Notes under the pieces: generated by a model | Database searches by the model: none | Told to the model about the DNA's origin: nothing | The model's input: only the letters and a program-made list of their open reading frames with translations | Part shown: positions 2,174 to 28,898 of the stretch, piece by piece | How positions within the stretch are numbered: the stretch's first letter is position 1 | How the letters are laid out: every line of letters begins with the position of its first letter | Origin: Candidatus Binatia bacterium | Lineage (GTDB): Bacteria > Patescibacteriota > Patescibacteriia > SG8-24 | Length of the DNA stretch: 64,000 bases | NCBI GenBank assembly: GCA_035495855.1 | Contig: DATJFD010000002.1 | Coordinates: 13,365 to 77,364, forward strand | Direction: 5' to 3' | Translations under genes and position numbers: made by a program

Positions 2174-2301
2174 GAAAGACCAAAGAACACAGAACAAAGA
2201 CGAAAGATCAGAGACAAAAGACCAGAGACGTTGGGTCGCCACCGGCGTCCTTGTTCTTTTTTCTTTGGTCTTTCATCTCTGTTCTTTGTTCTCTGGTCTT
2301 T
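2174..2301. repeat. heptamer-word palindrome (AAAGACC/AAAGAAC words)
   Basis: The left arm at 2174-2228 and right arm at 2241-2301 are approximate complements. Confidence 0.7.
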
Positions 2302-4229: not shown

Positions 4230-7124
4230 ATGTCGTCCCACAAATTTTCTCGTGCCGCGCGGGGAGCGGCGACAGCGACCGCCGCCTTGGCCGCGTTCTT
4301 CGCGTTCGCCTCGTTCGCGATCGGCGCCGGCGTCGCCATCGTCTCCGGCCCGTCGGTCCAGCCCTCGGAAATGACCGCGTCGAGCGCCGTCGTGCGCTGG
4401 CAGACCGACGTCGAAAGCACCACGGTCGTCCGTTTCGGCACCACGACCGCGCTCGGGCAGGAATACAAGAAGATCGAGCCCATCACCGAGGTCGAGACGA
4501 CGGAGATCGTGCACACTATGACGCTCGCCGGCCTGCAGCCGGACACGACCTATTTCTATGTGGCGCACTCCGCGACCGCCGACGCCGCCGTTGATTCGCC
4601 GATGCTGAGCTTCCATACGCCCGCGGCTTGCCAGGCCGATACATGGGAATGCGGGGCTTGGGGCGCGTGCAGCGCGGCGACCGGTACGCAGACGCGCATC
4701 TGCACCATGACGAACGACTGCCCGGACGTCTCCACGCCCAGACCGTCGCAGAGCCAGGCGTGCACGCCAGCCTGCACCGCGGACACGTGGGAATGCTCGG
4801 CCTGGGGCGCGTGCGCCAAGAGCGCCGACGGCAGTTACGATCAGCCGCGCACCTGCACCCTCAAGACCGACTGCCCCGGCGTGACGACGCCGAAACCGGC
4901 GGAGTCGCAGTCCTGCACGCCGTCCTGCACGGCGGACACGTGGTCTTGCACGGCTTACGGCGCCTGCGACCCGGCGACGAGCAAGCAGGCGCGCACCTGC
5001 ACCCTCAAGACCGACTGCCCGACGGCAACGACCGCCAAGCCCGCCGAATCGCGGTCCTGCACGGTGGCGACCCCGCCGCCCGCTCCGCCCGCGCCTCCGG
5101 CCCCGGCGCCCGTGCCGCCTCCCGCGCCTCCGCCGCAGCCCGCCTGCGACGCGGACGTCTGGGATTGCGGAGCCTGGGGGGATTGCGTCGTCGGCGCGAA
5201 CGGCGGCTATTTCCGCACCAGGAACTGCACGCTGGCGACCGACTGCCCTGCAGCCGAAACGCCGTCGCCTTCGGCGTCCGAGGCTTGCGAGCCGCCGGCG
5301 AACGCCGGCGCCGAAGGCACGAACTCGGCTCCCGCCGAGGGCGGCCTGCTGACATCGCTGGGAGACGCCGGCATCGCGGACACGGTCACCGTCCGCAGCG
5401 AACCCGGCTCGACGGACCCGAACCAATCGCTCGCGCCCGACTACGTCGTCACCCTCGTGGGCGTGGACCCCGCCCTGCAGCAGGAACTCGTGCGCGAGTG
5501 CCGCGACAACGGCATCCTCGCATCCCGCTGCGCAGCCTGGCTCACGGCCAAATACCAGGACCGCCGCTGCCTCGACGCGGGCAAGACCACGCGCGAGACG
5601 TGCGAGGGGTATCTCACCGGCCTGAACGGCGGCATCTTCCCGGGATGCGAGGGCAGGACGGACACGGAATGCGCCGCCGTCAAAGGCCGGCCGCTCATGG
5701 GTTACATCAACCTCGCCGCGAAGGCGAAGTTCGACGCCGTGCTGCAGGGCGCGCTCGATGGAGGCTTGCCGGTGGAGACGATCGACGGCCTGACCGCCGT
5801 GACGCCCGCGACGGCGAGGACGTCCATCTGGTGGCCGTCCCTGGAAGGCGATACCGCGCCCGCCATGATCATCGGCGACATGGACCGCGACGGCCTGCCC
5901 GACGATCTCGAGGTCCGCATGGGCTGGGACCCGCGCTCGAGCGACGTCGAGGGCGACGCGAAACAGGCGCGCGCGGTCCTGAAGTCGTTCTTCGAGCACG
6001 GCGACAAGCCGACGCAGTTCGTGTTCGTCGACGTCGACGGGAACGGGTCGCTCGATCTCGTCGAAGACCGCAAGCTGCTCGGGCTCAAGACGTACGATCC
6101 GGTCAAGGTCTATCTGCCGGGCGACACGTCGAAGAGGGTGAAGAACATGATGGCGGCGTTCTTCGGCGCCGAAGGCGACATGGCCGCCAAGCTCGGCGTC
6201 GACCTCGACGGCGACGGCGTTCCGGAAGCGAAGCTCTCGCGCGCGGTGCTCAAGACGTTCTTCCAGAAGGGGGACAGACCGACCGAGCAGCAGTTCGGTT
6301 CGATGATCGATCCGCGCGCCTTCGCCCCGGCCGACCTCGCGCTCATCACCGGGCACGCCATCGGGCAGCCGCTCGGCGCGGGAGAGACCGATCCGTCCTT
6401 CACCGTGGCCGTCGACCTGGACGCGAACACGACAGGAAAGAGTTCTCCCTCGCGCGACGCCAACGAACCGTCGCTCGGCACGCCGACCCGCGACCAGAAC
6501 GAACCAGGCGTGCTCGGCATCGGTCCCGTCAACGCGCCTATGGAATGCGAGACCGACAGGAATTGTCCGCCGGAATACCCGCAGTGCGTCGACCGCCGCT
6601 GCATCGGCGACGGGCATGACGCGAACGAGCCGCAGAGGCCCGGCACGACCGGCTACAACGACCGGGGCAACGAGGGCGATTACTCCAAGCACGCGTTCGT
6701 CCTCAGGGGCAAGGCGGCGCCGCATGCGGTCGTGGTGCTCTACATCTACAGCTACGTGCCGATGGTGCTCACCACCACGACGGACGAGAACGGCCAGTAC
6801 ACGTACGACGTCAGCGACAGCGTCGTCGACGGCGAGCATACGGCGTACGTCGCCGTCACCGACGACACGGGCAAGGTGGCGAAGAAGAGCTCGCCGCTGT
6901 CCTTCTTCGTGAAGGAAGCGCAAGCCGTCACGCAGGACGACTTCTACGCCTCCGACTCGAGCGCCAACGTGCCGACCGAGCCGGTCGCGCAGTGGCAGCG
7001 GTCGTACCTCATCGGCGCGGGCGCGGCGGTGGTGCTCGCGCTCATCGGCGTCTGGCTGTTCGTCGCCCGCAAGCTCGGGCCCGACCAGCCGCCGACGCCG
7101 CCCGCCGAACCGCCGAAGCAGTAG
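4230..7124 (+). CDS. large (964 aa) C-terminally anchored surface protein: FN3-like module, 4 Cys-rich repeats, Asp-rich Ca-binding-like motifs
   Basis: Starts at MSSHKF with a signal-like segment. VVRWQTD...YFYV resembles FN3. Four CxADxWxCxxWGxC...RxCT...DCP...C repeats follow, then DxDxDG-type motifs (MDRDGLPDD, VDVDGNGSLD, VDLDGDGVPE). A C-terminal TM helix is followed by a Pro-rich tail. Confidence 0.75.
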   Translation: MSSHKFSRAARGAATATAALAAFFAFASFAIGAGVAIVSGPSVQPSEMTASSAVVRWQTDVESTTVVRFGTTTALGQEYKKIEPITEVETTEIVHTMTLAGLQPDTTYFYVAHSATADAAVDSPMLSFHTPAACQADTWECGAWGACSAATGTQTRICTMTNDCPDVSTPRPSQSQACTPACTADTWECSAWGACAKSADGSYDQPRTCTLKTDCPGVTTPKPAESQSCTPSCTADTWSCTAYGACDPATSKQARTCTLKTDCPTATTAKPAESRSCTVATPPPAPPAPPAPAPVPPPAPPPQPACDADVWDCGAWGDCVVGANGGYFRTRNCTLATDCPAAETPSPSASEACEPPANAGAEGTNSAPAEGGLLTSLGDAGIADTVTVRSEPGSTDPNQSLAPDYVVTLVGVDPALQQELVRECRDNGILASRCAAWLTAKYQDRRCLDAGKTTRETCEGYLTGLNGGIFPGCEGRTDTECAAVKGRPLMGYINLAAKAKFDAVLQGALDGGLPVETIDGLTAVTPATARTSIWWPSLEGDTAPAMIIGDMDRDGLPDDLEVRMGWDPRSSDVEGDAKQARAVLKSFFEHGDKPTQFVFVDVDGNGSLDLVEDRKLLGLKTYDPVKVYLPGDTSKRVKNMMAAFFGAEGDMAAKLGVDLDGDGVPEAKLSRAVLKTFFQKGDRPTEQQFGSMIDPRAFAPADLALITGHAIGQPLGAGETDPSFTVAVDLDANTTGKSSPSRDANEPSLGTPTRDQNEPGVLGIGPVNAPMECETDRNCPPEYPQCVDRRCIGDGHDANEPQRPGTTGYNDRGNEGDYSKHAFVLRGKAAPHAVVVLYIYSYVPMVLTTTTDENGQYTYDVSDSVVDGEHTAYVAVTDDTGKVAKKSSPLSFFVKEAQAVTQDDFYASDSSANVPTEPVAQWQRSYLIGAGAAVVLALIGVWLFVARKLGPDQPPTPPAEPPKQ
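4623..5294 (+). repeat. 4 in-frame tandem coding repeats of about 145-153 bp (6-Cys module), the fourth separated by a Pro-rich linker
   Basis: Units at 4623-4769, 4770-4922, 4923-5066 and 5142-5294, by manual alignment of the protein. Confidence 0.8.
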
Positions 7125-7129
7125 AGTGC

Positions 7130-7255
7130 GAAGGGCAAAGGACAAAGGCCAGAGCTTAGAGGAAAAGGCATCCTAAAAACGCCCTGCGCAAGCAGGGCGT
7201 TTTTTTGAACATCTCGCATTCCTCTAAACTCCGTTCTCTGCCCTCTGTTCTTGCT
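7130..7255. repeat. nested palindrome with conserved terminator core
   Basis: GGGCAAAGGACAAAGGCCAGAGCTTAGAGGAA .. AAAAACGCCCTGCGCAAGCAGGGCGTTTTTTT .. TTCCTCTAAACTCCGTTCTCTGCCCTCTG. Confidence 0.8.
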
Positions 7256-8088
7256 CACTGCATCGTCACGATCTCCTTGCAGGAATCGACGATGCTCTTC
7301 ACGCGGTCGATGGGGATGCCGGTGCTCGCCGCGAGCGGGCCGGGCTTCTTCCCGGAGATCTCCCGGCAGAGCATCAGGTTCTTCTTGGAGAAGGCCTCGA
7401 GCTCCCACTGCTTCAGGTTCTCGAGCACGGTGATGGGATAGAGCGCGGCGTGGTCGACCATGCGGGCGAGCGACTGCTCCGTCTGGCTCCAGCCGATCAT
7501 GACGATGCCTTTGCAGACGCCGAACTGGTGCGCGCGGTCCGAGAAGCGGCCGTTCGTCACGATCCAGGCCTCGTCGAAGAAGGGCGTGTTCTTGCCGGCC
7601 TTCGATCCTTCGCGCAGGTCGATGAGCCGCGCCCAGGTCGCCATGGCGTCCTTGAGCGTGACGGTATCGTCGAAGCGGTTCCGGAACTTCGCCTCGATCA
7701 TGATGGTCCGGCTCGGCGACGTGGCGATGACGTCCACCTCGTGCATGACGCACAGGCCGGAGAGCTCGTTGTCGGGGATCTCCGTCTTGTACTCGTAGGC
7801 CCGCAGGATGGAGGCCACGTACTTCTCGAACTTGAAGCCGGCAGGACCGAGCTTCAGCAGTCCCGTCCTCAGGTTGTAGCGGTGCGCCAGGCACCGGCTC
7901 TCCGAGCGGAGTTCCTTGCGGACGATGGCGTAGACCTCGTTCGTGGTCATGCCGTCCTTCGTCTGGGCCATGACCTTCTGGACGATGTGGTTGATGAGAT
8001 CGTCCTTCGCGCCGATGCGCCGCAGCGTGTCGACGATCTTCTCGGGCTTGAACTGGACCTTGTCACCGTTGGCTTTCACGACGAGCAT
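7255..8088 (-). CDS. ATP-cone domain fused to a PD-(D/E)xK (restriction endonuclease-like) domain
   Basis: The N-terminus MLVVKANGDKVQFKPEKIVDTLRRIG... looks like an ATP-cone. Downstream HEVDVIA...IMIEAKF fits D...ExK. No N-terminal zinc ribbon, so it is not NrdR. Confidence 0.65.
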   Translation of the reverse strand: MLVVKANGDKVQFKPEKIVDTLRRIGAKDDLINHIVQKVMAQTKDGMTTNEVYAIVRKELRSESRCLAHRYNLRTGLLKLGPAGFKFEKYVASILRAYEYKTEIPDNELSGLCVMHEVDVIATSPSRTIMIEAKFRNRFDDTVTLKDAMATWARLIDLREGSKAGKNTPFFDEAWIVTNGRFSDRAHQFGVCKGIVMIGWSQTEQSLARMVDHAALYPITVLENLKQWELEAFSKKNLMLCREISGKKPGPLAASTGIPIDRVKSIVDSCKEIVTMQ

Positions 8089-8095
8089 ACGCCGT

Positions 8096-8923
8096 CTATT
8101 GTCGCGCGGGATGCCGTTTTCCGGCAAGGCCCGCCGCGACGGCCATGGAGACCAGGAAAAAGGCGACGGCGCAGAGCACCACGGTCGCACCGCTCGCGAG
8201 GTTGAGATAGTAGGAAAGGATGAGGCCGGTCACGGTCGAGAGCGCGGAGACCGCGGTCGCGATCGCCCAGGTCGCGCGGAAGCCCAGGCGGAACTGCATC
8301 GCCGCAAGCACGGGAATGACCATGAGCGCGCCGATGAGCAGGACGCCTACGACGTGGATGGAGATGGCGATGGTCGCGGCGCCGAGCACGGCGAGCAGGC
8401 GGTTAAGCGTCTTCACCGGAAGTCCGGCGGCCTGCGCGACGTCCTCGTCGAGCGAGACCGCGAAGAACGGCTCCCACAGGAGCGCCGCGACGGCGAGCGC
8501 GAGCGCGCCGAGCACGGCGATGTTGCGGACCTCGTCGCCGGTCACGGTGAGCACGCTGCCGAACAGGAAGCTGGCGATGTTGATGCCCGCCGAGCGCCTG
8601 AGGCCGAGCAGGACGACGCCCGTCGCCAGCCCGCCGAAGAGGAAGAGCGAGACGACCGTGTCCGAGGCGAGCGTCCGCCGCTCGCGGAGCCGCTCGATGC
8701 CGAGGATGGCGATGACGCAGGCGATGAGCGCGGACCACAGCGACGAGAGCCCGAAGAACATCCCGGCCGCGACGCCGGCGAGCGAGACGTGCGCGAGCGT
8801 GTCCGCCATGGCGGAATAGCGGCGCACGACGAAGAAGATGCCGATGGTCGGCGCGACGATCGAGAGGACCAGGCCGGCTTCGAGCGCGCGCCGCATGAAC
8901 TCGTAGTCGAGGAAATTCGGCAT
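8096..8923 (-). CDS. metal (Zn/Mn) ABC transporter permease, ZnuB/MntB-type
   Basis: Polytopic protein beginning MPNFLDYEFMRRALEAGL...DTLAHVSLAGV, typical of the ABC-3 permease family. Confidence 0.85.
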   Translation of the reverse strand: MPNFLDYEFMRRALEAGLVLSIVAPTIGIFFVVRRYSAMADTLAHVSLAGVAAGMFFGLSSLWSALIACVIAILGIERLRERRTLASDTVVSLFLFGGLATGVVLLGLRRSAGINIASFLFGSVLTVTGDEVRNIAVLGALALAVAALLWEPFFAVSLDEDVAQAAGLPVKTLNRLLAVLGAATIAISIHVVGVLLIGALMVIPVLAAMQFRLGFRATWAIATAVSALSTVTGLILSYYLNLASGATVVLCAVAFFLVSMAVAAGLAGKRHPARQ

Positions 8924-8924
8924 A

Positions 8925-9716
8925 TCAATGGTCGTTGCCGTGAGGTTCTCCGTTCTCGTGGAACCCGTGGTGGGCCTCGAGGTCGTTGTGGTCGTGGTGG
9001 AGGTTCTTCATGGCGCTGCCGGTGACGACGCAGGCCTTCTCGCCGTGGCAGACCAGCTCGTGGCGCAGGCACAGCGCGGAATCCGCCTCCTTGGCGATGC
9101 GATGGACGTCGTGCGACACGAAGATGATGGTCTTGCCCTTCTTGTTGAGCGCCTTGAGCGTGGCGTAGAACTCCTCGCGAGAGCCGGGGTCGAGCCCCTC
9201 GATGGGCTCGTCGAGCATGAGGATGTCCGGCTCGGCGGCGAGCGCGCGGGCCAGCAGCACGCGCTGCCGTTCGCCGCCGGAGAGCGACGCGATGACGCGG
9301 TGGCGGAGATGGCCGATGTTCGTGGCGTCGAAGGCGGCGTCGATGGCCTTCTCATCCGAGGCGCTGGGCCGCGCCAGGAGGCCGCGGACCTGGGTGCGTC
9401 CGGCGGCCACGACCTCCTCGGAGGTGGCCGGGAAGGACGGGTCGATGAGCCCGCCGCGCTGGGCCACGAAGCCGATGCGGCGCCTCGCGTGCATGTCGCC
9501 GCACGGCAGCCCGAAGACGCGCACGGAGCCTTTCGTCGGTTCGAGCAGGCCGAGCAGCACGCGCAGGAGCGTCGATTTCCCGCCGCCGTTCGGTCCGATG
9601 ACCGCGACGTACGAACCCGGCGCGATCGTGAAAGAGAAGTTCTCGAAGAGCGCCTCGCCGTTGCGGACGTAGGTCAGGCCCTTTGCTTCGATGGCCGCGG
9701 TCTTTTTCACTGGCAT
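8925..9716 (-). CDS. metal ABC transporter ATP-binding protein with His-rich C-terminal tail
   Basis: Walker A GPNGGGKST, signature LSGGERQR and Walker B LMLDEP. The tail reads HHDHNDLEAHHGFHENGEPHGNDH. Confidence 0.85.
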   Translation of the reverse strand: MPVKKTAAIEAKGLTYVRNGEALFENFSFTIAPGSYVAVIGPNGGGKSTLLRVLLGLLEPTKGSVRVFGLPCGDMHARRRIGFVAQRGGLIDPSFPATSEEVVAAGRTQVRGLLARPSASDEKAIDAAFDATNIGHLRHRVIASLSGGERQRVLLARALAAEPDILMLDEPIEGLDPGSREEFYATLKALNKKGKTIIFVSHDVHRIAKEADSALCLRHELVCHGEKACVVTGSAMKNLHHDHNDLEAHHGFHENGEPHGNDH

Positions 9717-10624
9717 TCGAGCGCTGTTCTCAGGTTCGCGAGGTTCTCGCGCTGCACCGAGAGATAATCCCTGCCCGCGGCGATGTCGCCGTCCGTCAGG
9801 CCTTCGAGCGGGTTGAACACGAGGGTCTGCGCGCCGATCTCGGCGGCGATGGTCTTGGAAAGCTGGGGGTTCACCAGCGTCTCGAAGAAGACGTAGTGCA
9901 CGTCCTTCGCCTTCGCCGCGGCCGCGAGCGAGGCCATGGCCCCGGCGGAGGGTTCTTCTTCGGGCGACAGGCCGGCGATGGAAAGCTGGGTGAAGCCGTA
10001 ACGCGCGCCGAGATAGGCGAAGGCGGCGTGCGAGGTCACCGCGGTGTGGAGCCGGCAGGACGCGAGACCGCCCTTGAACTCGGCGTCGAGCTGAGCCAGC
10101 TCCGCGACGTACGCGGCGGCGTTGGCGCGGTAGGTCTCGGCGTGCGCCGCGTCGATGGCGATGAGCTTGTCGCGGATGGCCTCGACCTCCTTCTGCGCGA
10201 TGACGGGATCGAGCCAGAAATGCGGATCGAAGGCCAGTTCCTGTTCTCCCTCGGGCGCCGGCAGCTTCGCGTCCACTGCCGGGGAGATCTCGAGCGTCGC
10301 CGTCCTCGAACCGTCGAGCGAAGGCGCGAGCCTCGCGGCCCAGTTGTCCATGCCGCCGCCGTTATACACGAAAAGGTCGGCCTCATGCGCGGCCGCGACC
10401 TGCCGCGGCGTCGGCTCATAGTCATGCGGCTCGGCGCCGGCGGGCGTCACGTTCGTGACCGACGCGAGGTCGCCGGCGACCTTGGAAGCGAAATGGGCAA
10501 GGGGATAGAAGCTCGCCATGATCGTGAGGTTCGCGCTCGTCGGGGCAGCCGGGGCATTGCCGCAGCCGAAGCCCGCGAAGAGCAGGGCCGCGACGGACGC
10601 GATGAAGGGAAGTCTCTTGCGCAT
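9707..10624 (-). CDS. metal ABC transporter substrate-binding protein (ZnuA/TroA family), probable lipoprotein
   Basis: Signal segment ending ...LFAGFGC. DPHFWLDP and the overall pattern match cluster-9 binding proteins. Confidence 0.8.
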   Translation of the reverse strand: MRKRLPFIASVAALLFAGFGCGNAPAAPTSANLTIMASFYPLAHFASKVAGDLASVTNVTPAGAEPHDYEPTPRQVAAAHEADLFVYNGGGMDNWAARLAPSLDGSRTATLEISPAVDAKLPAPEGEQELAFDPHFWLDPVIAQKEVEAIRDKLIAIDAAHAETYRANAAAYVAELAQLDAEFKGGLASCRLHTAVTSHAAFAYLGARYGFTQLSIAGLSPEEEPSAGAMASLAAAAKAKDVHYVFFETLVNPQLSKTIAAEIGAQTLVFNPLEGLTDGDIAAGRDYLSVQRENLANLRTALECQ

Positions 10625-10644
10625 GCTCGTTCGGTGATGCCCCG

Positions 10645-10665
10645 ATGATAATGCAACTGAGTTGC
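10645..10665 (-). promoter_or_regulatory. candidate -10 box (TATCAT) with adjacent perfect 6-1-6 palindrome GCAACTcAGTTGC (possible metalloregulator operator)
   Basis: Lies in the 46-nt spacer upstream of the binding-protein start. The palindrome spans 10653-10665. Confidence 0.3.
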
Positions 10666-10670
10666 GTCTG

Positions 10671-12617
10671 TCAAACCTTGGGGCCGTTGCCGTTCCCGTA
10701 CCTTTTCTTGATCGGCAAGAGCTTCCCGCCGGTGACGTCCACCGCGACGCCCATCACGCCGATGATCGCGCCGTCGCGGGCCTTGAGCGGCATGTTCGTG
10801 ACCTCGAGCGTTCGCTCCTTGAGGAACAGCGTGCCGCGCACGGTCTCGCCCCTGAGCGCGCGATGATGGTTGTCGACGATGGCCGGCTCGTTCTTGTACA
10901 GCTCGAACACCGACATGCCGATGTGCGACCCCGGCTCGATGCCGAGTCCGGCGAGGCCGCGGCCTTCCGAGAGCGTCATCACGCCATCCTTGTCCGTGGC
11001 CCAGAGGATGATCGGCGCCCCGTCGAGCACCGTCTTGAGGCGCATCTCGCTGTCGCGCAGTTTCTCCGTCCTGCGCCGCACTTCCTCGGAGAGTTCGGCG
11101 CCCTTGGTGCGAAGTTCGTTCTCCATCTTCCGGAAGGCGGTGACGTCGTGGACGGTGACGACCAGGCGGACGGGCTTGCCGGCGCCATCGCGCTGCACCG
11201 CGCCGTGCGCGCGCAGGATGCGCTGCTCGCCGTCCGGACGCGTGATGCGGTGATCGAAGCTGAAAGGGACCGCCTCGGTCCGCGCCTTCTTCACGGCGAT
11301 CTTCACCCGCTCGCGGTCTTCCGTGTCGATCTGCTGCAGATAGGCGGCGAGCGTCGGCCTCTCCGAGCCCGGCTCGAGGCCGTAGATGCGGAAGAGCTCG
11401 TCGGTCCAGGTCATCTCGTCCGTCGCGGTGTCCCATTCCCAGCTGCCGACATGGGCGATGCGCTCGGCCTCGGCCAGGAGCTCCGTCGTCTTGCGGCGCT
11501 CCTCCTCGGCCTGCTTGCGCGCCGACAGGTCGCGCGCCACCACCGCGAGGCCGGCGAGCCTGCCCCGTTGCCCGATCGGCGAGACGGTGACCGCGACGTC
11601 GATGCGTGAGCCGTCCTTGCGTTTGTGGACGGCCTCCATCTGCTCGATGTGCTCGCCCTCGGCTGCGCGCTCGATGAGCGCCGCGGCCTGTTCTCCGGCG
11701 AGGCCGTCCGGCAGCAGCGCGGACAGGTTCTTGCCCAGGATCTCCTCGGCGGCGTAGCCGTAGGCGTCGCGTGCGCCCTGGTTCCAGCTCGTGATGGTCC
11801 CGTCGGCGTTCGTGCCGAAGATGGCGGCGTGCGAGGCGTGCACGATGGCCGCCAGGCGGTCATGCGCTTCGCTCTCGGCCACGCGCTTGCTGACGTCGCT
11901 GAAGGTCGCGAGCGCGGCGAAGGTCTCGCCGGAGCGCCGGACGGGGACGACGCGCAGGTCGAACACCGCGGGCTCGCCGGCCGGTCCGCGAAGTCGCACC
12001 TCGTTGCGGGCCTCGCCGCCGTTCGAGAACACCCGCGACAGCATCTTGCGGGCCTGGGCCCGGTGCTCGGCCGGCAGCAGCGTCACGAACATCCGGCCGA
12101 CCACGCTGCCCTTCTCCTCCGGCGACCAGGTGAGGGGGCGGTTGACGTAATGGACCGTGCCGTCGCGGCGCACGGTCATGACCACGTCGGGGACGTGCTC
12201 GGAGAGCAGGCGCCACATCTGTTCCGCTTCGCGCAGCCGGGCGTTGTCGCGCGCCATGCGCGACGTGAGCGCGTTGACCGCGAGCGTGATGACGGGGAAG
12301 CCGATCGACACGACGATCATGCGCATGCGATCGTCCGAGGTATAGAGGAAGAACGTGCGCGGTTCGGAAAGAAGCCCCGCGAGGAAGAACCAGCCGATCG
12401 CGCCGCAGACGAGGCCCGCGATCACGCCGCCCTCGAGCGTCGCGTAGAGGACGAGCAGGCCGAAGACCAGGGAAGCGATGTCGTGCGGAACGTGCCAGCC
12501 GGAACGTTCGGCGGCGACGAGGAACGAGCCGACGAACAAGGACGCCGCCGGGACGGCGGAAGCGCGGAGGATGCGCAGGAGGGTCGCCCGGTTCATCGCG
12601 TCGCGGCGATTCGCCAT
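10671..12617 (-). CDS. membrane-anchored multi-PAS sensor protein with no recognisable output domain
   Basis: N-terminal TM helices followed by several PAS-like units (e.g. MWRLLSEHVPDVVM, RLAAIVHASHAAIFG, ELLAEAERIAHVGSWEW, RLKTVLDGAPIILWA). The protein ends just after the last PAS unit. The start is uncertain (12617, 12623 or 12596). Confidence 0.7.
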   Translation of the reverse strand: MANRRDAMNRATLLRILRASAVPAASLFVGSFLVAAERSGWHVPHDIASLVFGLLVLYATLEGGVIAGLVCGAIGWFFLAGLLSEPRTFFLYTSDDRMRMIVVSIGFPVITLAVNALTSRMARDNARLREAEQMWRLLSEHVPDVVMTVRRDGTVHYVNRPLTWSPEEKGSVVGRMFVTLLPAEHRAQARKMLSRVFSNGGEARNEVRLRGPAGEPAVFDLRVVPVRRSGETFAALATFSDVSKRVAESEAHDRLAAIVHASHAAIFGTNADGTITSWNQGARDAYGYAAEEILGKNLSALLPDGLAGEQAAALIERAAEGEHIEQMEAVHKRKDGSRIDVAVTVSPIGQRGRLAGLAVVARDLSARKQAEEERRKTTELLAEAERIAHVGSWEWDTATDEMTWTDELFRIYGLEPGSERPTLAAYLQQIDTEDRERVKIAVKKARTEAVPFSFDHRITRPDGEQRILRAHGAVQRDGAGKPVRLVVTVHDVTAFRKMENELRTKGAELSEEVRRRTEKLRDSEMRLKTVLDGAPIILWATDKDGVMTLSEGRGLAGLGIEPGSHIGMSVFELYKNEPAIVDNHHRALRGETVRGTLFLKERTLEVTNMPLKARDGAIIGVMGVAVDVTGGKLLPIKKRYGNGNGPKV

Positions 12618-14436: not shown

Positions 14437-14552
14437 GTTTCTGGACCCCGGGTCAAGCCCGGGGTGACAAAAGTTAACTGTCACCCCGCACTTGATGCAG
14501 GTCCAGAAAAAAAGAAATGTCACCCTGAACTTGTTTCAGGGTCCAGAAACAA
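14437..14552. repeat. REP/BIME-like hairpin cluster 1 (3 units)
   Basis: Units follow TGTCACCC-stem-loop-stem-GGGTCCAGAAA. One unit is inverted. Confidence 0.75.
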
Positions 14553-15975: not shown

Positions 15976-16005
15976 ACGACCTGCCCCTCGAGGCGGGTTT
16001 TTTTT

Positions 16006-16124
16006 AGAGGAAAAAGGGAAAAGAAAAAAGCTTAGATGAATTGAGATCTCTAAACCGTCCTGCTCGAGCATGACGGTTTTTTGTACATGTCCATTCCTCT
16101 AAGCTTTCCCTTTTTCCTTTTTTG
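16006..16124. repeat. nested palindrome (AAAAGGG words) with terminator core
   Basis: AGAGGAAAAAGGGAAAAG..GCTTAGA .. AAACCGTCCTGCTCGAGCATGACGGTTTTTT .. TCCTCTAAGCTTTCCCTTTTTCC. Confidence 0.7.
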
Positions 16125-16315: not shown

Positions 16316-17764
16316 ATGATCGTCATGAAGTTCGGCGGCAGTTCCGTCGGGACCGCCGAGGCCATCGGCCAGGTGGCGGGGCTGGTCGAAAGCTACCGCG
16401 AAGAAAAGCCCGTCATCGTCGTTTCAGCCCTCCAGGGCGTCACCGACCGCCTGCTCGCGCTCGCGGACGCGGCGCTCGCGCGCGACCTCGACGCCGTCGA
16501 GGCCGGCCTGGCGCAGCTCCGCAGCCGCCATCGCGAGACCGCCATCGGCGCGGCGGGGGACGACGCCCTCGCCTGCCTCGCGCGCATCGACGCGCTCATG
16601 GGCGAGCTCGGCCACGCGCTGCGCGGCATCGCGGCCCTCGGCGAGCTCTCGCCGCGCTCGCTCGACCTCGTCGTCTCGTTCGGCGAGCGGCTCTCCGCGC
16701 CCATCGTCGCCGCGGCGCTCTCCGCCCGCGGCATCCCCGCGGAGGACGTCGACGCCCGCGCGCTCATCGTCACCGACGACCGCTTCACCTCCGCCGCGGT
16801 GCGCTTCCCGGAGACCGACGCGCGCGTGGCCGCGGCGCTGCCGCCGATGACGGATGCGGGCAAAGTGCCGGTCGTCACCGGTTTCATCGGCGCGACCGAG
16901 GACGGCGTCACGACGACGCTCGGCCGCGGCGGGTCGGACTACAGCGTGGCCATCCTCGCCGGCGCGGTCGGCGCGCGCGAGATCTGGATCTGGAAGGAGG
17001 TCGACGGCGTCATGACCGCGGACCCCGGCACCGTGCCGGACGCGTCGCTGCTCTCGGCCATCAGCTACGACGAAGCCGCCGAGATGTCCTACTTCGGCGC
17101 CAAGGTGCTCCACCCGAAGACGATGATCCCGGCGGTCGAAAGGTCCATCCCCATCAGGATGCGCAACACCTTCCGGCCGGACGCGCCGGGCACGGTCATC
17201 GGCCGCGGCACCGTCGCGTCGCCGCTCGGCGTGAAGGTCGTGACCGCCATCAAGAAGCTCGCCATGGTGACCGTCGAGGGCAAGGGGATGATGGGCATGG
17301 CCGGGTTCGCGGCGCAGGTGCTCGGCGTCGCCGGCCGGCGCGGCATCAACGTCATCATGTTCAGCCAGTCTTCGTCCGAGCAGAACATCTGCCTCGTCAC
17401 CGGCGCCAAGGACGGCCACCGCTTCAAGGCCGAGCTCGAGCGCGAACTGCGCGAAGAACTTTCGCAGCGGCTCATCGACCGTATCACCGTCGAGGACGGC
17501 GTCGCCGCGGTCGCGGTCGTGGGCGAAGGCATGAAGGGCGCGCCCGGCGTGGCCGCGCGGCTGTTCGGCGCGGTCGCGGAGGCGAACGTGAACATCCTCG
17601 CCATCGCGCAAGGATCGTCCGAGCGCAACATCTCGTTCGTGGTCCGCGAGGCCGACGCCGACGCCGCGGTGCGCGAGGTCCACAAGGCCTTCGGCCTGCA
17701 TGATTTGGCCCCCAAGACCACGGCCAAAGCCTCGAAGCTCGAAGCTAGAAGCTCGCAGCTATGA
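16316..17764 (+). CDS. ask: aspartate kinase
   Basis: MIVMKFGGSSVGT..., GRGGSDYS and C-terminal ACT-like repeats. Confidence 0.9.
   Translation: MIVMKFGGSSVGTAEAIGQVAGLVESYREEKPVIVVSALQGVTDRLLALADAALARDLDAVEAGLAQLRSRHRETAIGAAGDDALACLARIDALMGELGHALRGIAALGELSPRSLDLVVSFGERLSAPIVAAALSARGIPAEDVDARALIVTDDRFTSAAVRFPETDARVAAALPPMTDAGKVPVVTGFIGATEDGVTTTLGRGGSDYSVAILAGAVGAREIWIWKEVDGVMTADPGTVPDASLLSAISYDEAAEMSYFGAKVLHPKTMIPAVERSIPIRMRNTFRPDAPGTVIGRGTVASPLGVKVVTAIKKLAMVTVEGKGMMGMAGFAAQVLGVAGRRGINVIMFSQSSSEQNICLVTGAKDGHRFKAELERELREELSQRLIDRITVEDGVAAVAVVGEGMKGAPGVAARLFGAVAEANVNILAIAQGSSERNISFVVREADADAAVREVHKAFGLHDLAPKTTAKASKLEARSSQL
17727..17760 (+). repeat. GCTCRAA heptamer array inside the ask 3' end, abutting the hom ATG
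   Basis: AAGCCTC GAAGCTC GAAGCTA GAAGCTC GCAGCT followed by ATG. Confidence 0.7.
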
Positions 17765-18849
17765 AACTCGTCCCCATCGCCGTCATCGGCAAAGGCAACG
17801 TCGGCAAGGCCTTCCTGCGGCAGGTCGCGGAGGCCCGGCCCAGGTTCCGCGAGCGCGGGCTCGACCTGCGCGTCACCGCCGTGGTCGGCAAGAGCGCCGG
17901 CCTCTACGTGCAGGGCGGGATCCCCGACGCGACCATCGAGGACCTCGCGAACGGCCGCGCGAAGATCGAGAAGACGAGGACCGGCGATGGTCCCGCGGGC
18001 GGCTGGGACGAGGTCACCGCCAACATCGCCGCGGCCGGCGCGCTCGGCCAGGTCGTCGTCGACGCCACGGCCGAGGACGACGCGCGCGTGCACGCGGAAT
18101 GGCTGAAACGCGGCTGGAACGTCGTCACCGCGAACAAGCGGCCGATCACGGGACCGCTCCTGCATTACGACGCCATCCTCGCCGGACGCGACCGTCCCGA
18201 AGCGCCTGGCTACCGCTACGAAGCGACGGTCGGCGCGGGACTGCCGATCATCTCGACGCTCCAGGACATGCTGGCCACCGGCGACGAGGTCATCGAGGTC
18301 AGGGCCGCGGTCTCCGGCACGCTCGGGTTCCTGTTCTCCTCGTGCGAGGAGGGCGTGCCGTTCTCTGCGGCGGTGGCGGAGGCGAAGTCGCGCGGCTACA
18401 CCGAGCCCGACCCGCGTGAGGACCTCTCCGGCGCGGACGTCGCCCGCAAGGCGCTCATCCTCGCCCGGCTGTTCGGCCAGCGCAAGGAATTGAAAGATAT
18501 TCCCGCCGAGAGCCTCGTGCCGCCGGAGCTCGAAGGCGCGACCGTCGAAGAGTTCCTGCGCGAGCTCGGCGGGCACAGCCGCGCGATCGACGATCGCTTC
18601 CGCGCCGTGGCGCGGCGCAAGCACACGCTGCGCTACCTCATGGCCGTCACGCCCTCCGACGTACGCGTCGGCATCGAGGAAGTCCCGGTCGGGACGGCCT
18701 TCGGCGCGCGCAAAGGCCCCGAGAACATGTTCATCATCCGGACGCGGCGCTACAACGCGCTGCCGCTCGTCATCCGCGGCCCCGGCGCGGGCGCCGAGGT
18801 CACCGCGGCCGGCATCTTCGCCGACGTCCTTCGCATCATCAGGCATTGA
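17761..18849 (+). CDS. hom: homoserine dehydrogenase
   Basis: VIGKGNVGKAF Rossmann motif with conserved VVTANK and EPDPREDLSGADVARK. Its ATGA overlaps the ask stop. Confidence 0.85.
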   Translation: MKLVPIAVIGKGNVGKAFLRQVAEARPRFRERGLDLRVTAVVGKSAGLYVQGGIPDATIEDLANGRAKIEKTRTGDGPAGGWDEVTANIAAAGALGQVVVDATAEDDARVHAEWLKRGWNVVTANKRPITGPLLHYDAILAGRDRPEAPGYRYEATVGAGLPIISTLQDMLATGDEVIEVRAAVSGTLGFLFSSCEEGVPFSAAVAEAKSRGYTEPDPREDLSGADVARKALILARLFGQRKELKDIPAESLVPPELEGATVEEFLRELGGHSRAIDDRFRAVARRKHTLRYLMAVTPSDVRVGIEEVPVGTAFGARKGPENMFIIRTRRYNALPLVIRGPGAGAEVTAAGIFADVLRIIRH

Positions 18850-18860
18850 CCCCTTCATCT

Positions 18861-19916
18861 ATGAACGCACCCCGCTATCGCATCGGCATCCTCGGCGCCA
18901 CCGGCATGGTCGGCCAGCGGATGCTCTCGCTCCTCGACGGCCATCCTTGGTTCACCGTGACCGCGCTCGGCGCTTCCGAACAATCCGCCGGCAAGCGCTA
19001 CACCGACGCCGCCGCCTGGCAACTCGACCAGCCCATGCCCGCCTGGGCCCGCGACATGGTCGTGAAGAACTGCGTGCCGGACCTCGAGTGCGACCTGGTC
19101 CTCTCCGGCCTCGACAACGCCGTGGCCGGCGAGATCGAAGAGACGTTCGCCGCCGCCGGCTATCCCGTCATCTCGAACGCCAAGAACCACCGCATGGAAG
19201 CGGACGTGCCGCTCGTCATCCCCGAGGTGAACCCCGGGCATCTCGACGTCCTCGCGCGGCAGCGGGCGATGCGCGGCTGGAAGAAGGGCTGCATCGTCAC
19301 GAACCCCAACTGCTCGACCGTCGGCCTCGTCTGCGCGCTCAAGCCGCTCCAGGATTCGTTCGGCCTGCGCAAGGCGATGGTCACGACCATGCAGGCGATC
19401 TCCGGCGCGGGCTATCCCGGCGTCGCCTCGCTCGACATCCTCGACAACGTCATCCCGTTCATCAAAGGCGAAGAGGAGAAGATGCAGTCCGAGACGATGA
19501 AACTGCTCGGCAACTTCGACGGCGAGAAGTTCGCCGACGCGGACATGGCCGTCTCCGCGCACTGCAATCGCGTGCATGTCCGCGACGGGCATCTCGAATG
19601 CGTCTCGGTGGAGCTCGAGGAGCAGGCCTCGCCCGAACAGGTCGTCGAGGCGTGGCGCTCCTTCAAGCCGGAGGTCGCGGCCCTGAAGCTGCCGAGCGTG
19701 CCCGACCCGTTCATCGTCTATAAAGATGAAGAGAACCGTCCGCAGCCGCGGCGCGACCGCGAGGCGGGCAAGGGGATGACGGTCTCCGTCGGCCGGCTGC
19801 GCAAATGCCCCATCCTTCAGTACAAGTTCGTCGTGCTCTCGCACAACACCGTCCGCGGCGCGGCCGGCGCGGCGATCGCCGACGCCGAACTGCTCGTCGC
19901 CAAGGGGCTGGTCTGA
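18861..19916 (+). CDS. asd: aspartate-semialdehyde dehydrogenase
   Basis: IGILGATGMVGQR, active-site NPNCST, and SHNTVRGAAG at the end. An alternative TTG start lies at 18846. Confidence 0.85.
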   Translation: MNAPRYRIGILGATGMVGQRMLSLLDGHPWFTVTALGASEQSAGKRYTDAAAWQLDQPMPAWARDMVVKNCVPDLECDLVLSGLDNAVAGEIEETFAAAGYPVISNAKNHRMEADVPLVIPEVNPGHLDVLARQRAMRGWKKGCIVTNPNCSTVGLVCALKPLQDSFGLRKAMVTTMQAISGAGYPGVASLDILDNVIPFIKGEEEKMQSETMKLLGNFDGEKFADADMAVSAHCNRVHVRDGHLECVSVELEEQASPEQVVEAWRSFKPEVAALKLPSVPDPFIVYKDEENRPQPRRDREAGKGMTVSVGRLRKCPILQYKFVVLSHNTVRGAAGAAIADAELLVAKGLV

Positions 19917-20017
19917 GAGCACGAAAAAGGAAAATAGCAAGGGTCCCCCGAAAGGGGGGACTGGACGAACTCAGCGCCGGGTTTAAGGTGAGAACGTAAG
20001 TCATTAAGTCCACGCGT

Positions 20018-20323
20018 ATGCACAAGGAAATGTTGTTCGCGTACGGCACGCTCCGGGACGGTGACATCCGCAAGGCGCTGTTCGGCGGCCTGCCGGCGGG
20101 AGAACCCGACATGTTGCACGGGTTCCTGAAGACGACGACGTCGATCAGCGGCGTCCATTACCCGAACATCGTCCCCGCCGAGGACGTGGTCGTGCACGGC
20201 GAAGTGCTGGAGGTGGACGAAGACACGCTGCGGCGCGTCGACGCCTACGAATCCGAGGCGTACCAGCGGCGCAGGATGCGGCTCGCGAGCGGGAAACAGG
20301 CCTGGGTCTACATCAGGGACTGA
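20018..20323 (+). CDS. gamma-glutamylcyclotransferase (AIG2/GGACT-like) family protein
   Basis: LFAYGTLR...VHGEVLEV...LRRVDAYE pattern. Confidence 0.65.
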   Translation: MHKEMLFAYGTLRDGDIRKALFGGLPAGEPDMLHGFLKTTTSISGVHYPNIVPAEDVVVHGEVLEVDEDTLRRVDAYESEAYQRRRMRLASGKQAWVYIRD

Positions 20324-20326
20324 CGC

Positions 20327-21277
20327 ATGCCGATGACGCACGCCAGAGCCTTCGCGCCCGCGACCGTCGCCAACGTCGGTCCCGGTTTCGACGTCTTCGG
20401 GTTCGCGCTCGAGCGGCCGGGGGACGTCGTCGAAGCCTGGAGGAACGGCAAGCGCGGCGCGCGCCTCGTCGAGGTCACCGGCGACGACGGGAAGCTTCCG
20501 CGCGACGCGGCGACGAACGTCGCTTCCGCGGTCGCCGCGCGGATGCTGCGCGGCTCCGGAGCGAAGTTCGGCGTCGCGCTCCGCCTGGAGAAAGGGCTGC
20601 CGCTCGGCAGCGGGCTCGGCTCGTCCTCCGCTTCCGCGGTCGCCGCGGCCGTGGCCGTCAACGCGCTGCTCGACCGCCCGTACACGGAGGATGAACTGCT
20701 CGAGTTCGCGCGCTACGGCGAGAAGGTCGCCTGCGGAGCCGCGCACGTCGACAACGTCGCCCCCGCGCTCTTCGGCGGCTTCACCGTCGTCGTCCGCCAG
20801 GACCCGCCGGAAGTCGTCCGCCTGCGCTGCCCCAAGACCTGGCGCGCGGTCGTCGCGCATCCCCGTTTCGAGCTTTCCACCCGCAAGGCGCGCGCGGTGC
20901 TGCCGCGCGAGGTGCCGCTTTCGCGCATGACCGCCAACGTCGCAGCCGCAGCCGCCGCGGTCGCGGCCGTGATGGGCGGCGACCTCGCCGCGCTGGGACG
21001 CGCCATCACCCGCGAGGCCGTCATCACGCGCGCCCGCGCGGGCCTCATCCCCGGCTTCAAGGAGGTCGGCGAAGCCGCCTTGTCCGCCGGCGCCGCGGGC
21101 TTTTCCATCTCCGGCGCGGGCCCGTCGATCTTCGCGTTGACCGACGGCGACCGCCGTGCGACGCTCGTGGGAGCGAAGATGATCGCGGCCTGGAGGCGCC
21201 TCGGCATCGCCGCGGACCTCTATCTGAGCCGCGTCGGCGCCCCGGGCGCCCGCCTTTTGGAAGACACAAGGAGCTAG
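20327..21277 (+). CDS. thrB: homoserine kinase
   Basis: ATVANVGPGFDVFG and the GHMP motif GLPLGSGLGSSSAS. Confidence 0.9.
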   Translation: MPMTHARAFAPATVANVGPGFDVFGFALERPGDVVEAWRNGKRGARLVEVTGDDGKLPRDAATNVASAVAARMLRGSGAKFGVALRLEKGLPLGSGLGSSSASAVAAAVAVNALLDRPYTEDELLEFARYGEKVACGAAHVDNVAPALFGGFTVVVRQDPPEVVRLRCPKTWRAVVAHPRFELSTRKARAVLPREVPLSRMTANVAAAAAAVAAVMGGDLAALGRAITREAVITRARAGLIPGFKEVGEAALSAGAAGFSISGAGPSIFALTDGDRRATLVGAKMIAAWRRLGIAADLYLSRVGAPGARLLEDTRS

Positions 21278-21279
21278 TT

Positions 21280-22584
21280 ATGCAAAGCGCGACCCGTCTC
21301 GCCTGCGTTCTTTGCGGAGCGGCATACCCGCTCGACGATCGCATGTCGTGCGGCTGCGGGGGACTCCTCGACGTCGTTCACGACATGCATGCGGCCGCGA
21401 AACGCGGCCCCGACGGCTGGAAGCGCCTGTTCGCGTCCCGCCGCGCGGGCCCGATGTCGCCCGCGGACGCGAGCGGCGTCTGGCGTTACCGCGAACTCGT
21501 CGTGCCCGACCTCGACCCGGACGAGCTCGTCACCCGCGGGGAAGGCAACACCCGCCTCTACGGCCCCGGGCTCTTCAGGAAGGCCAACGCCTTCATGGGC
21601 ACGGACGCCGTCTCCTTCAAGCATGAAGGGGAGAACCCGACCGGCTCGTTCAAGGACCGCGGCATGACCGTGGCCATGAGCTGGGCCAGGAAGCGCGGCG
21701 CCAAGACCGTCGTGTGCGCCTCGACCGGCAACACCTCGGCCGCCGTCGCCTCGTACGCCTCGCTCGCCGGACTGCCCGCCGTCATCATCATCTCCGAGAA
21801 GGGGACGGCGCTCGGCAAGGTCGCGCAATCGCTCGCCTACGGCGCGCGCTGCGTGATGATCCGCGGCGACTTCGACGCCGCCCTCAGGCTGGTCATGGCC
21901 TCCAAGGACAAGCTCGGGCTCACGGTCATGAACTCCGTGAACCCGATCCGCCTCGAAGGCCAGAAGACCATCATCTGGGAGGCGCTCGAGCAGCGCGGCT
22001 GGGACCCGCCCGACTGGTTCGTCGTTCCCGGGGGAAACCTCGGCAACGCCGCCGCCTTCGGCAAGGCGCTGCGCGAGGCCGTCGACCTCGGGCTCATCGC
22101 CCGCATGCCGCGGCTCGCCGTGGTGCAGGCCGCCGGCGCGGACCCGTTCTACAAGGCCTCGCTCGCCGGCTGGAAGCGCGGCCCCGTCGCCGCGAAGACC
22201 ATCGCGACCGCCATCAAGATCGGCGACCCGGTGAACTTCGACAAGGCCGTGCGCGCCATCAACTGGACGAACGGCGCCGTGACCGAGGTCGACGACCAGG
22301 CCATCATGGACGCCAAGGCCGCGCTCGACGCGGACGGCGTCGGCGCCGAACCCGCCTCCTGCGCCACCGCCGCCGGCATCCGCCGGCTCGTGGCCGAAGG
22401 GGTCATGCGCAAGGACGAGACCGCGATCGCCGTGCTCACCGGGAACTTCCTCAAGGACCCGGACGCGACCATGGGCTACCACGCGGGCACGCTCGACGGC
22501 ATCGCCTCGAACGCGGCCAACCGGCCGGTCGTCATCGACGCGACGCTCGACGCGCTCGAAGCCGCCCTCGCCGCGCCGCGATAA
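21280..22584 (+). CDS. thrC: threonine synthase
   Basis: PLP lysine motif NPTGSFKDRGM and GNLGNA, with N-terminal Cys pairs. Confidence 0.9.
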   Translation: MQSATRLACVLCGAAYPLDDRMSCGCGGLLDVVHDMHAAAKRGPDGWKRLFASRRAGPMSPADASGVWRYRELVVPDLDPDELVTRGEGNTRLYGPGLFRKANAFMGTDAVSFKHEGENPTGSFKDRGMTVAMSWARKRGAKTVVCASTGNTSAAVASYASLAGLPAVIIISEKGTALGKVAQSLAYGARCVMIRGDFDAALRLVMASKDKLGLTVMNSVNPIRLEGQKTIIWEALEQRGWDPPDWFVVPGGNLGNAAAFGKALREAVDLGLIARMPRLAVVQAAGADPFYKASLAGWKRGPVAAKTIATAIKIGDPVNFDKAVRAINWTNGAVTEVDDQAIMDAKAALDADGVGAEPASCATAAGIRRLVAEGVMRKDETAIAVLTGNFLKDPDATMGYHAGTLDGIASNAANRPVVIDATLDALEAALAAPR

Positions 22585-23135: not shown

Positions 23136-23219
23136 GAGTACCCAGTACTCAGTACTCAGTAAACAGAGGTCGGCGTCGATTCTGTGTACTGTGTACTGAG
23201 TACTGTTTACCGTGTACTC
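23136..23219. repeat. heptamer-word palindrome (GTACTCA/GTAAACA words)
   Basis: Lies in a divergent intergenic region. Uses the same word family as 53756-53830. Confidence 0.7.
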
Positions 23220-23227: not shown

Positions 23228-23236
23228 TGCTATAAT
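23228..23236 (+). promoter_or_regulatory. extended -10 box TGcTATAAT, 6 nt upstream of ATG 23243 (leaderless-type)
   Basis: Read directly. No Shine-Dalgarno is possible in the 6-nt gap. Confidence 0.5.
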
Positions 23237-23242
23237 CGTCCC

Positions 23243-24436: not shown

Positions 24437-24556
24437 AGGGCAGAGGGCAAAGGACAGAGTCGAGAGGTAAGGATGTTCAAAAAACGCCCTGCGAGCGCAG
24501 GGCGTTTTCAGTAGGTCCCTTCCTCTTACCTCTGCCCTCTGTCCTTTGTCCTTTTT
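24436..24556. repeat. nested palindrome with conserved terminator core
   Basis: GGGCAGAGGGCAAAGGACAGAG.. AAAAAACGCCCTGCGAGCGCAGGGCGTTTT ..CTCTGCCCTCTGTCCTTTGTCC. Confidence 0.8.
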
Positions 24557-24650
24557 TCCAAGCGCCGTGAAACGCATCTTGCTAACTTTTTCCTCGCGTA
24601 AACAGCCTTATAAACGGGCTTTCCATGCGTCGCGGCGTTATCCACAATGA

Positions 24651-24789: not shown

Positions 24790-27987
<3,198 letters not shown>

Positions 27988-28136: not shown

Positions 28137-28144
28137 GTCCCGAT

Positions 28145-28838: not shown

Positions 28839-28898
28839 CATCTCGACAAAACCGCGAAAACATGCTCAACTGGAGCCGTCCTTTCTTGGAGGTGCGTC

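Follow-up and report, generated by a model that had tools for sequence, protein, structure and literature searches.

Terminator-like palindromes with arms of heptanucleotide words in the gene spacers of a soil Patescibacterium

The spacer at 7125-7254 and its homologues

The stretch of DNA analysed here (the window; 64,000 nt of contig DATJFD010000002.1, assembly GCA_035495855.1, filed as Candidatus Binatia bacterium) carries, between the stop codons of two convergent genes, a nested palindrome that occupies the entire spacer from 7125 to 7254. The genes encode a large surface protein and an ATP-cone/Mrr-like protein respectively (Table 1), and the palindrome consists of outer arms of degenerate 7-nt words (consensus GGRCARA), an inner pair of clamps and a central hairpin that is separated from the clamps by spacers on both sides. 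Like the GGRCARA words of the arms, the clamp pair TTAGAGGAA/TTCCTCTAA is an inverted array with a 7-nt unit. These parts had been described in an earlier note made from the letters of the sequence, and all of them were located where it had placed them or a few bases away. The centre, which that note took for a bidirectional intrinsic terminator, conforms by sequence to the definition of one, namely an A-run, a GC stem of 8-9 bp, a loop of 3-4 nt and a T-run (here A5, 8 bp, GCAA and T7), and is predicted to stop both of the convergent transcripts.

The window contains seven homologous copies of this element, all in spacers, which can be aligned end to end including the order of the word variants. 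The element is about 120-130 bp long, with outer palindromic layers of 30-45 nt per side. The core 20-mer has six matches in the window with up to three mismatches (0.05 expected), and the clamp 10-mer TCCTCTAAAC has 12 with up to one mismatch (1.16 expected, a 10-fold enrichment); nine of the latter lie in the seven copies, two in related small hairpins and one in coding DNA at 12340, and the clamp is degenerate in three of the seven copies. A hidden Markov model (HMM) of the clamp-to-clamp cores recovers exactly the seven copies, and no further ones in the window or in about 880 kb of sequence from relatives. Every copy lies downstream of genes and touches or overlaps stop codons, two of them (c16005 and c47190) each adjoin a gene's own plain terminator, and symmetric cores are present also between co-directional genes, where one direction is superfluous. 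With core and clamp counts so far above chance expectation, the description of a dispersed, multi-copy nested palindrome is borne out, and copies are present at all of the loci listed for it; the copies are, however, not all in one orientation, the body of c7130 being the reverse complement of that of c28720.

The terminator design is identical in all seven copies, and pairing in the stem is kept through double changes at five of 13 pairs (CGCCCTGC, CGCGCTGC, CGCGTCGC and their partners). Since the flanks of these copies are homologous, such co-variation is good evidence for selection on the hairpin. A simple terminator scanner reports several of the cores (24498-, 63934+, 63945- and 47267-); the core at 7180 is not listed, and our guess is that it was missed because its A and T runs were absorbed into the stem. 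Many plain terminators without arms are also present in the genome. In four copies the + strand has (G/C)CAA as its terminator loop (7188-7191, 28781-28784, 61225-61228 and 63938-63941), so that c7130 and c28720, and likewise c61170 and c63885, have loops of the same sense despite opposite bodies. As the loop sense is constant while the body is inverted, the loop is flipped relative to the body, reflecting either a flip relative to the flanks, small loop inversions of this kind being typical of hairpins, or selection in the sense of the upstream + strand genes. The inversion of the body around a loop that keeps its orientation lends indirect support to the suggestion that the element is a recombination substrate.

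We note a second dispersed family of terminator-like hairpins with conserved flanks, TTCTGGACCC(C/T)G-loop-C(G/A)GGGTGACATTTTT, which occurs six times in 74 kb. Three of the copies are clustered at 49376-49520, and one similar copy lies at about 7250-7300 of L007, a contig from a relative.

Complementarity of the arms

The arms had been estimated by hand at about 70 % complementary, and it had been suggested that they are kept as word composition rather than as a perfect stem; both statements agree with our measurements. Watson-Crick identity between an arm and the reverse complement of the opposite arm is 0.68-0.78, and in a register test the arm-to-arm identity, 0.63-0.87 in register, was unchanged by a slide of 7 or 14 nt. 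Permuting the 7-nt blocks of one arm retains most of the pairing energy. Such independence of register means that the complementarity resides in word composition and not in position-specific pairs, and the arms pair as facing arrays of a degenerate word and of its complement.

Comparison of fold energies with those of shuffled controls, which the earlier note had proposed as a check, favours both the whole element and the arms alone. The focal element folded as RNA gives z = -4.9 on the + strand and z = -9.7 on the - strand, and z = -3.5 when folded as DNA. When the terminator is left out and the arms are joined by a GAAA linker, they fold better than composition-matched shuffles in each of the seven copies (z from -2.8 to -9.4), and in 13 of 14 such tests none of 200 shuffles was as good.

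The mismatches between the arms comprise 32 that would be G-U pairs on the + strand, 51 that would be G-U pairs on the - strand and 75 transversions. Among tandem spacers that lack arrays, better folding of the sense strand outnumbers better folding of the antisense strand (206 versus 106, P = 4e-13), the outcome expected of genuine RNA structures, whereas spacers with heptamer arrays have no such bias (22 versus 27, in a test that rests on 18-49 spacers and rough gene calls). The register independence and the absence of a sense-strand bias together suggest that arm complementarity was made at the DNA level and not tuned in RNA. Arm length on one side correlates with that on the other (r = 0.54, P = 0.003), in agreement with arm-to-arm copying. 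The strand that is transcribed toward the terminator, whichever it may be, has its purine arm first.

Heptamer arrays in this genome and its relatives

The part of the genome covered amounts to about 74 kb, made up of the 64-kb window and an overlapping contig (L001; 73.9 kb together) that belongs to the same genome, with 0 mismatches over an overlap of 2,569 bp. The host is a soil Patescibacterium of 66 % GC. The DnaK gene lies just past the window end, and its best protein matches are in metagenome-assembled genomes (MAGs) labelled Parcubacteria, Uhrbacteria or Patescibacteria; the 'Binatia' label on the two closest DnaK matches, and on the closest public MAG proteins, is probably a mislabel. 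The window genes are of a housekeeping kind, including those of the threonine pathway, class II ribonucleotide reductase, ZnuABC, peptidoglycan synthesis and others.

The lag-7 autocorrelation that had been proposed as a check on intergenic DNA does yield a peak in spacers (0.311, versus 0.258 in coding DNA), with further peaks at lags 14 and 21, and coding DNA shows only period 3. Within the 73.9 kb, there are 28 period-7 arrays of at least three copies in spacers, compared with 0.02 in dinucleotide shuffles, and period-7/8 arrays cover 10.3 % of spacer bases versus 0.44 % of coding bases. Tandem 7-nt units are thus present over chance and largely confined to spacers, as in heptamer simple-sequence repeats generally. 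As Tandem Repeats Finder reveals for the window, the armed-terminator family is only one among many period-7 array types in these spacers, with words unrelated to one another (Table 1), a point absent from the earlier note. The copy c47190 and the terminator-less hairpin at 2175-2301 both start with AATTAAAGA just past a T-run. Direct (GAAGCTC)n arrays, without a Shine-Dalgarno sequence, reach start codons or form whole intercistronic spacers.

The other word-array hairpins mostly have no central terminator; several of the word families occur at two or more loci, and GGGGAAAA is among the unrelated words of these spacer hairpins. One purine-word array type encodes both the end of MscL (..KEQRTEVRG*, 61165-61195) and the start of the open reading frame (ORF) at 40863-41756(-) (MKEQRTENKGQ.., 41722-41756). 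Promoter-like extended -10 boxes of the form TGCTATA(A/C)T recur in spacers (23228-23245 and 53745-53760, and in spacers of L001 and of the relative L005). The box at 23231 lies about 7 nt before an ATG, which suggests a leaderless mRNA, and that at 53747 is just before a heptamer hairpin, which would then be the 5' end of the transcript.

Eighty related loci (883 kb; GC from 33 % to 66 %) were collected from metagenomes with the Band_7 protein as query. Over these, arrays of at least three copies number 135 at period 7, with 25 at period 6, 55 at period 8 and 37 at period 9, and their words are genome-specific, falling into 91 classes among 132 arrays. A word motif common to the genomes, such as AAG every 7 nt, was considered and rejected, as there is no strong 3-mer enrichment and only ATG is depleted. 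Adjacent array pairs are inverted in 28 of 38 cases, giving long hairpins in which one position per 7 nt is often mismatched; some of these array hairpins enclose terminators (L031 4580-4745, L050 10570-10750 and L007 7890-7990), while a start codon marks the end of others. Arrays are nearly lacking from some relatives, such as L005, and the core and clamp of the window family were not found in any of the 80 loci.

The closer relatives permit a comparison of sites. L005, with 86 % DnaK identity to the window genome, has a plain terminator without arms in its Band_7-maf spacer, which is orthologous to the site of c63885. L007, with 92 % Band_7 identity and coding DNA that is 73-86 % identical at the nucleotide level, has an armed terminator after mscL, as does the window (c61170); the arms use related words (AGAATAA versus AGAGGAC) and are partly alignable, and the central hairpin is unrelated. 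A 28-nt array at L007:7350-7377 is 100 % identical to window 2274-2301, the two species co-occurring and the sites being non-orthologous. The architecture therefore stays while the sequence turns over, and copies within a genome are more alike than orthologues are, which points to concerted evolution or repeated copy-and-paste. A second, independent assembly contig from the same sample (L086), covering window 7002-11027, differs from the window by four single-nucleotide polymorphisms, all coding, and the focal element is identical. The end of this contig lies 123 nt beyond the focal element, consistent with such repeats breaking metagenome assemblies.

It could be argued that the arms are selected for a function in RNA, either because their purine words (GGA, AGG, GAGG every 7 nt), located in the 3' UTR, bind a CsrA-, S1- or Csp-like protein or because they form a hairpin for RNase III or mRNA stability. 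The purine arm does come first on the strand transcribed toward the terminator, the folds are predicted to be very stable, and the architecture and the arm complementarity are kept at the orthologous mscL site though both arms changed words; moreover, binding of S1, Csp or CsrA has been proposed for the TAACTGA heptamer arrays that precede start codons in Beggiatoaceae (PMC4679880). We nevertheless think a function of this kind improbable, since array-bearing spacers have no sense-strand folding advantage, unlike ordinary spacers, pairing is independent of register, the words are unrelated between genomes and even inside this genome, and many heptamer hairpins have no terminator. With so many word classes and no sense-strand G-U bias, the protein- or RNA-binding platform suggested by the earlier note found no positive evidence.

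An outside scan of 185,579 species genomes with the pattern TTAGAGGAA-N40-70-TCCTCTAAACTC gave three matches, none from the source lineage. In two of them, a Nomurabacteria MAG (L004) and a Veillonellaceae MAG (L003), the clamp stands around a terminator-like hairpin, and the layout array, TAGAGGAA, hairpin, CCTCTAAACTC, array recurs. As it was the search pattern that picked out the outside matches, and by our own estimate about eight would arise by chance, they serve as leads and not as independent evidence. We note that the words CTCTAAACTCTCAA are common to L003 and window 29588-29614; a mini-ORF from AGAGGAAATG of the Veillonellaceae copies was rejected, its frames not being kept between copies.

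The 10-fold enrichment of the clamp 10-mer in the window and these two outside MAGs could be taken to mean that the clamp TTAGAGGAA/TTCCTCTAAAC is a DNA recognition site, an inverted short signal (an uptake, recombinase or nucleoid-protein site) flanking terminators like the DNA uptake sequence (DUS) pairs of Neisseria. To this we give very little credence, as occurrences of the clamp are nearly all inside the seven elements and not scattered over the genome, the clamp is degenerate in three of the copies and absent from all 80 related loci, and the outside matches were chosen by the pattern. Uptake sequences (DUS/USS) are short words over-represented across a whole genome, in coding DNA too, and often paired in inverted form in terminators; this candidate was likewise rejected because 11 of the 12 TCCTCTAAAC near-matches are in spacer palindromes and one is in coding DNA. 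An attC site of integrons is an imperfect palindrome after a gene cassette, with the inverse core RYYYAAC at the 5' end and the core GTTRRRY at the 3' end; here the motif order is reversed (GTTTAGAGG ... CCTCTAAAC) and the neighbours are housekeeping genes, and this candidate too was rejected.

Table 1. Positions of the focal element, its homologues and other repeats (window numbering unless a contig is named)
Feature	Position	Remarks
Gene for large surface protein (+)	4287-7124	Stop TAG at 7122-7124
Left outer arm, degenerate purine-rich 7-nt words GGGCAAA GGACAAA GGCCAGA ...	7125-7153	Begins immediately after the TAG stop
Left inner clamp GCTTAGAGGAA	7154-7164	In register, the two innermost words of the arm
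A-run, A5	7175-7179	Part of terminator core
Terminator stem, left, CGCCCTGC	7180-7187	
Terminator loop GCAA	7188-7191	
Terminator stem, right, GCAGGGCG	7192-7199	
T-run, T7	7200-7206	
Whole bidirectional terminator core (predicted)	7175-7206	Spacers separate it from the clamps on both sides
Right inner clamp TTCCTCTAAAC	7219-7229	
Right outer arm, pyrimidine-rich words, complements of the left-arm words	7230-7254	Ends at the stop of the - strand gene
Gene for ATP-cone/Mrr-like protein (-)	7255-8190	Stop reads TCA at 7255-7257 on the + strand
Copy c7130 (focal)	7125-7260	Between convergent genes
Copy c16005, A-rich variant, words GGGAAAA	16003-16135	Hairpin 16052-16082; directly after the upstream gene's plain terminator, 15978-15999
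Copy c24440	24436-24560	Between RNase H-like gene and class II ribonucleotide reductase gene; arm starts at stop codon
Copy c28720	28718-28845	Downstream of cobO; first word includes TAG stop; body inverse to c7130
Copy c47190, words AGAGAAC, stem CGCGTCGC/GCGACGCG	47186-47335	Directly after plain terminator at about 47160-47185
Copy c61170, stem CGCGCTGC/GCAGCGCG	61165-61295	mscL frame enters left arm and ends at the TAG of GGTTAGAGG
Copy c63885	63883-64000	Cut by window end; downstream of Band_7 gene; complete copy is L001:2451-2580
Second hairpin family	14522-14542(-), 49384-49404, 49419-49439, 49490-49511(-), 60524-60545; L001 4197-4238	
(AGTACTC)n hairpins	23137-23218, 53757-53831	
(AGTCGAA)n hairpin	48005-48079	
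(AGGTTGT)n hairpin	49951-50019	
(GAGAATT)n hairpin	29552-29614	
(AAAGACC)n hairpin	2175-2301	Terminator-less
8-mer hairpin	100-160	
Further word-array hairpins	940-1070, 61692-61750; L001 4764-4848, 8111-8204	
Direct (GAAGCTC)n arrays	17731-17760, 51314-51347, 39344-39378, 46518-46564, 49527-49562; L001 3419-3475, 7925-7956	
L003 (genuine Veillonellaceae contig), three copies, two in tandem	L003 2130-2211, 4197-4474, 6704-6872	Downstream of ffh and other genes; heptamer arrays flank the clamp
L004 (low-GC Nomurabacterium)	L004 1100-1210	Near-perfect palindrome around terminator

Origin of the element and comparison with known repeats

The explanation that we favour, with reasonable though not strong confidence, is that the armed terminator is a genome-specific dispersed palindromic spacer repeat, akin to repetitive extragenic palindromes (REPs) and miniature inverted-repeat transposable elements (MITEs), with a putatively functional terminator at its centre and heptamer arms that were grown by slippage, copied and homogenized. 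The arms would arise at the DNA level by replication slippage in 7-nt steps, a bias already known to underlie heptamer simple-sequence repeats in prokaryotes. Copying of one arm from the other by quasi-palindrome template switching, itself an established source of mutations, would maintain their symmetry, and the family would be homogenized within the genome by copy-and-paste or by ectopic gene conversion between loci, leading to fast turnover between species much as in REP/REPIN or MITE families. Transcripts terminated from either side would have a single-stranded purine-rich tail and the terminator hairpin at the 3' end, and read-through transcripts are predicted to form an interrupted hairpin of some 50 bp (-57 to -81 kcal/mol), which could be a back-up stop, an RNase III target or an exonuclease barrier.

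Several points weigh against this explanation. The activity of the terminator, like any role of the arms in RNA, is a prediction from the sequence, and slippage and template switching are a proposed origin of the arms. The strand-bias test covers 18-49 array-bearing spacers, and selection for pairing would be another way to account for the architecture being retained in L007 although the words of both arms differ. In the sole population comparison, that with L086, there is no copy-number variation in the focal element, and both the family copy number and the search for a mobilizing enzyme cover about 74 kb of this genome.

A different origin would make the armed terminator a classical non-autonomous mobile element (MITE, REPIN or PATE-like), the arms being ends recognized by a transposase encoded elsewhere, for example an IS200/IS605-type Y1 enzyme or a RAYT, and the terminator a passenger or a domesticated part. 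Homology of the whole element, including word order, at seven loci and in both orientations would agree with this, as would the genome-specific nature of the families, the start shared by c47190 and the hairpin at 2175-2301 after a T-run, and the 28-nt array that is identical in two species at non-orthologous sites. In addition, c16005 and c47190 are redundant as terminators, since they come right after plain ones. On the other hand, none of the seven copies shows a target-site duplication, flanking direct repeats or sharp ends, and the arms are variable in length and degenerate. No transposase, Y1_Tnp, RAYT or TnpB domain was found among the proteins of about 60 window genes, nor any parent insertion sequence with matching ends in about 74 kb of the genome or in the examined loci of relatives. 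The copies, moreover, always fill the spacer exactly to the stop codons, and in L007, at 73-86 % nucleotide identity, the corresponding site likewise bears an armed terminator. A mobile origin seems to us unlikely. The earlier suggestion of a mobile terminator cassette is consistent with the homologous copies in both orientations, two of them beside plain terminators, but no target-site duplication came to light, and no transposase in the 74 kb.

The element may also be set beside several well-known systems. The Correia/NEMIS MITEs of Neisseria are located in spacers and co-transcribed, they give a long RNA hairpin that RNase III cleaves and that can influence transcription, and they duplicate TA at the target. 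The armed terminator shares with them a size of about 100-150 bp, inverted-repeat ends and a spacer location, but it has no defined termini and no target-site duplication, and its arms are degenerate heptamer words. Foldback (FB) transposons, which are eukaryotic, of kilobase scale and transposase-associated, have long inverted terminal repeats made of short tandem sub-repeats and are like the element in design only. REP elements are often found between convergent genes and affect termination and mRNA stability. The likeness to REP/REPIN families (PMC3116915) extends to genome-specific, multi-copy, extragenic, hairpin-forming palindromes that are homogeneous within a genome and different between species; the element differs in its degenerate 7-nt-word arms of variable length, its complete central terminator and its Patescibacterium host, and no RAYT gene or conserved RAYT-type recognition motif was seen in 74 kb. 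With intrinsic terminators it has in common a GC stem-loop with an A-run before and a T-run after, a position past stop codons and a co-varying stem, and it departs from them in having two extra palindromic layers and near-identical cores at several loci.

Among the long simple-sequence repeats of prokaryotes the heptamer is the most frequent unit, a preference for which slippage of the polymerase has been proposed as the cause (Mrazek, 2007, as reported in PMC4679880). The arrays described here resemble other heptamer repeats (cyanobacterial STRR, Beggiatoaceae TAACTGA, LSSR; PMC4679880, PMC4692102) in their 7-nt unit, intergenic location and scattered phylogeny, and the (GAAGCTC)n arrays directly before start codons are particularly reminiscent of the Beggiatoaceae arrays (PMC4679880). 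They differ in that they are mostly inverted, hairpin-forming pairs, some of them around terminators, with degenerate words of which there are many per genome. No description of heptamer or inverted word arrays around terminators in Patescibacteria was found in the searchable literature, and at the Rfam gathering threshold only two tRNAs in the window score and the element matches no family. The earlier remark that this is not a described repeat family therefore holds as regards Rfam and the literature, with the reservation that heptamer repeats are a recognized prokaryotic class. What is new here is the presence of inverted heptamer arrays around terminators, in Patescibacteria; terminators, REP/MITE-like families and heptamer repeats were already known.

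The clade-wide building of hairpins from heptamer arrays is a more interesting result than the family itself. Patescibacteria are a very large uncultured branch with tiny genomes and almost unknown gene regulation, and in a tree-of-life survey, which gives no reason for it, the density of perfect inverted repeats in patescibacterial phyla such as Uhrbacteria ranks among the highest (PMC13155455); heptamer-array hairpins are a plausible source of this density. The preference for 7-nt units seen in cyanobacteria, Beggiatoaceae and others is thereby extended to a new clade and a new arrangement. If slippage and palindrome-templated copying are indeed responsible, these genomes are a natural experiment in palindrome growth under reduced repair, whereas if the arms are selected they would point to an RNA- or DNA-binding factor that reads 7-nt units. 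A bolder conjecture, which we consider rather doubtful, is that an active process measuring 7 nt operates in Patescibacteria and scattered others (e.g. L003) and builds mirror arrays of words around hairpins at gene boundaries; the results would be self-assembling 'foldback' spacer elements with their own words in each genome, modular controllers of RNA 5' and 3' ends and not a passive by-product of slippage. In practical terms, such elements break metagenome assemblies and can add repeat-encoded residues at protein ends.

A permissive Rfam scan matched c16005 to mir-3202 (27.9 bits versus a gathering score of 90), gave other heptamer hairpins of the window sub-threshold matches to generic microRNA-precursor hairpin models, and matched the centre of c61170 weakly to a Brucella small RNA model (19.4 bits). 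A tRNA-like sub-threshold match at 46147-46207(-) (25.3 bits; gathering score 29) lies close to the tRNA at 46354-46425. The threonine cluster encodes aspartate kinase, homoserine dehydrogenase, ASD, a GHMP-family (homoserine-type) kinase and a PLP-dependent (threonine synthase-type) enzyme, and the genome is metabolically rich for a Patescibacterium, with a class II ribonucleotide reductase accompanied by CobO and an HMG-CoA reductase also present (regions 16316-22584, 24790-28720 and 48107-49297).

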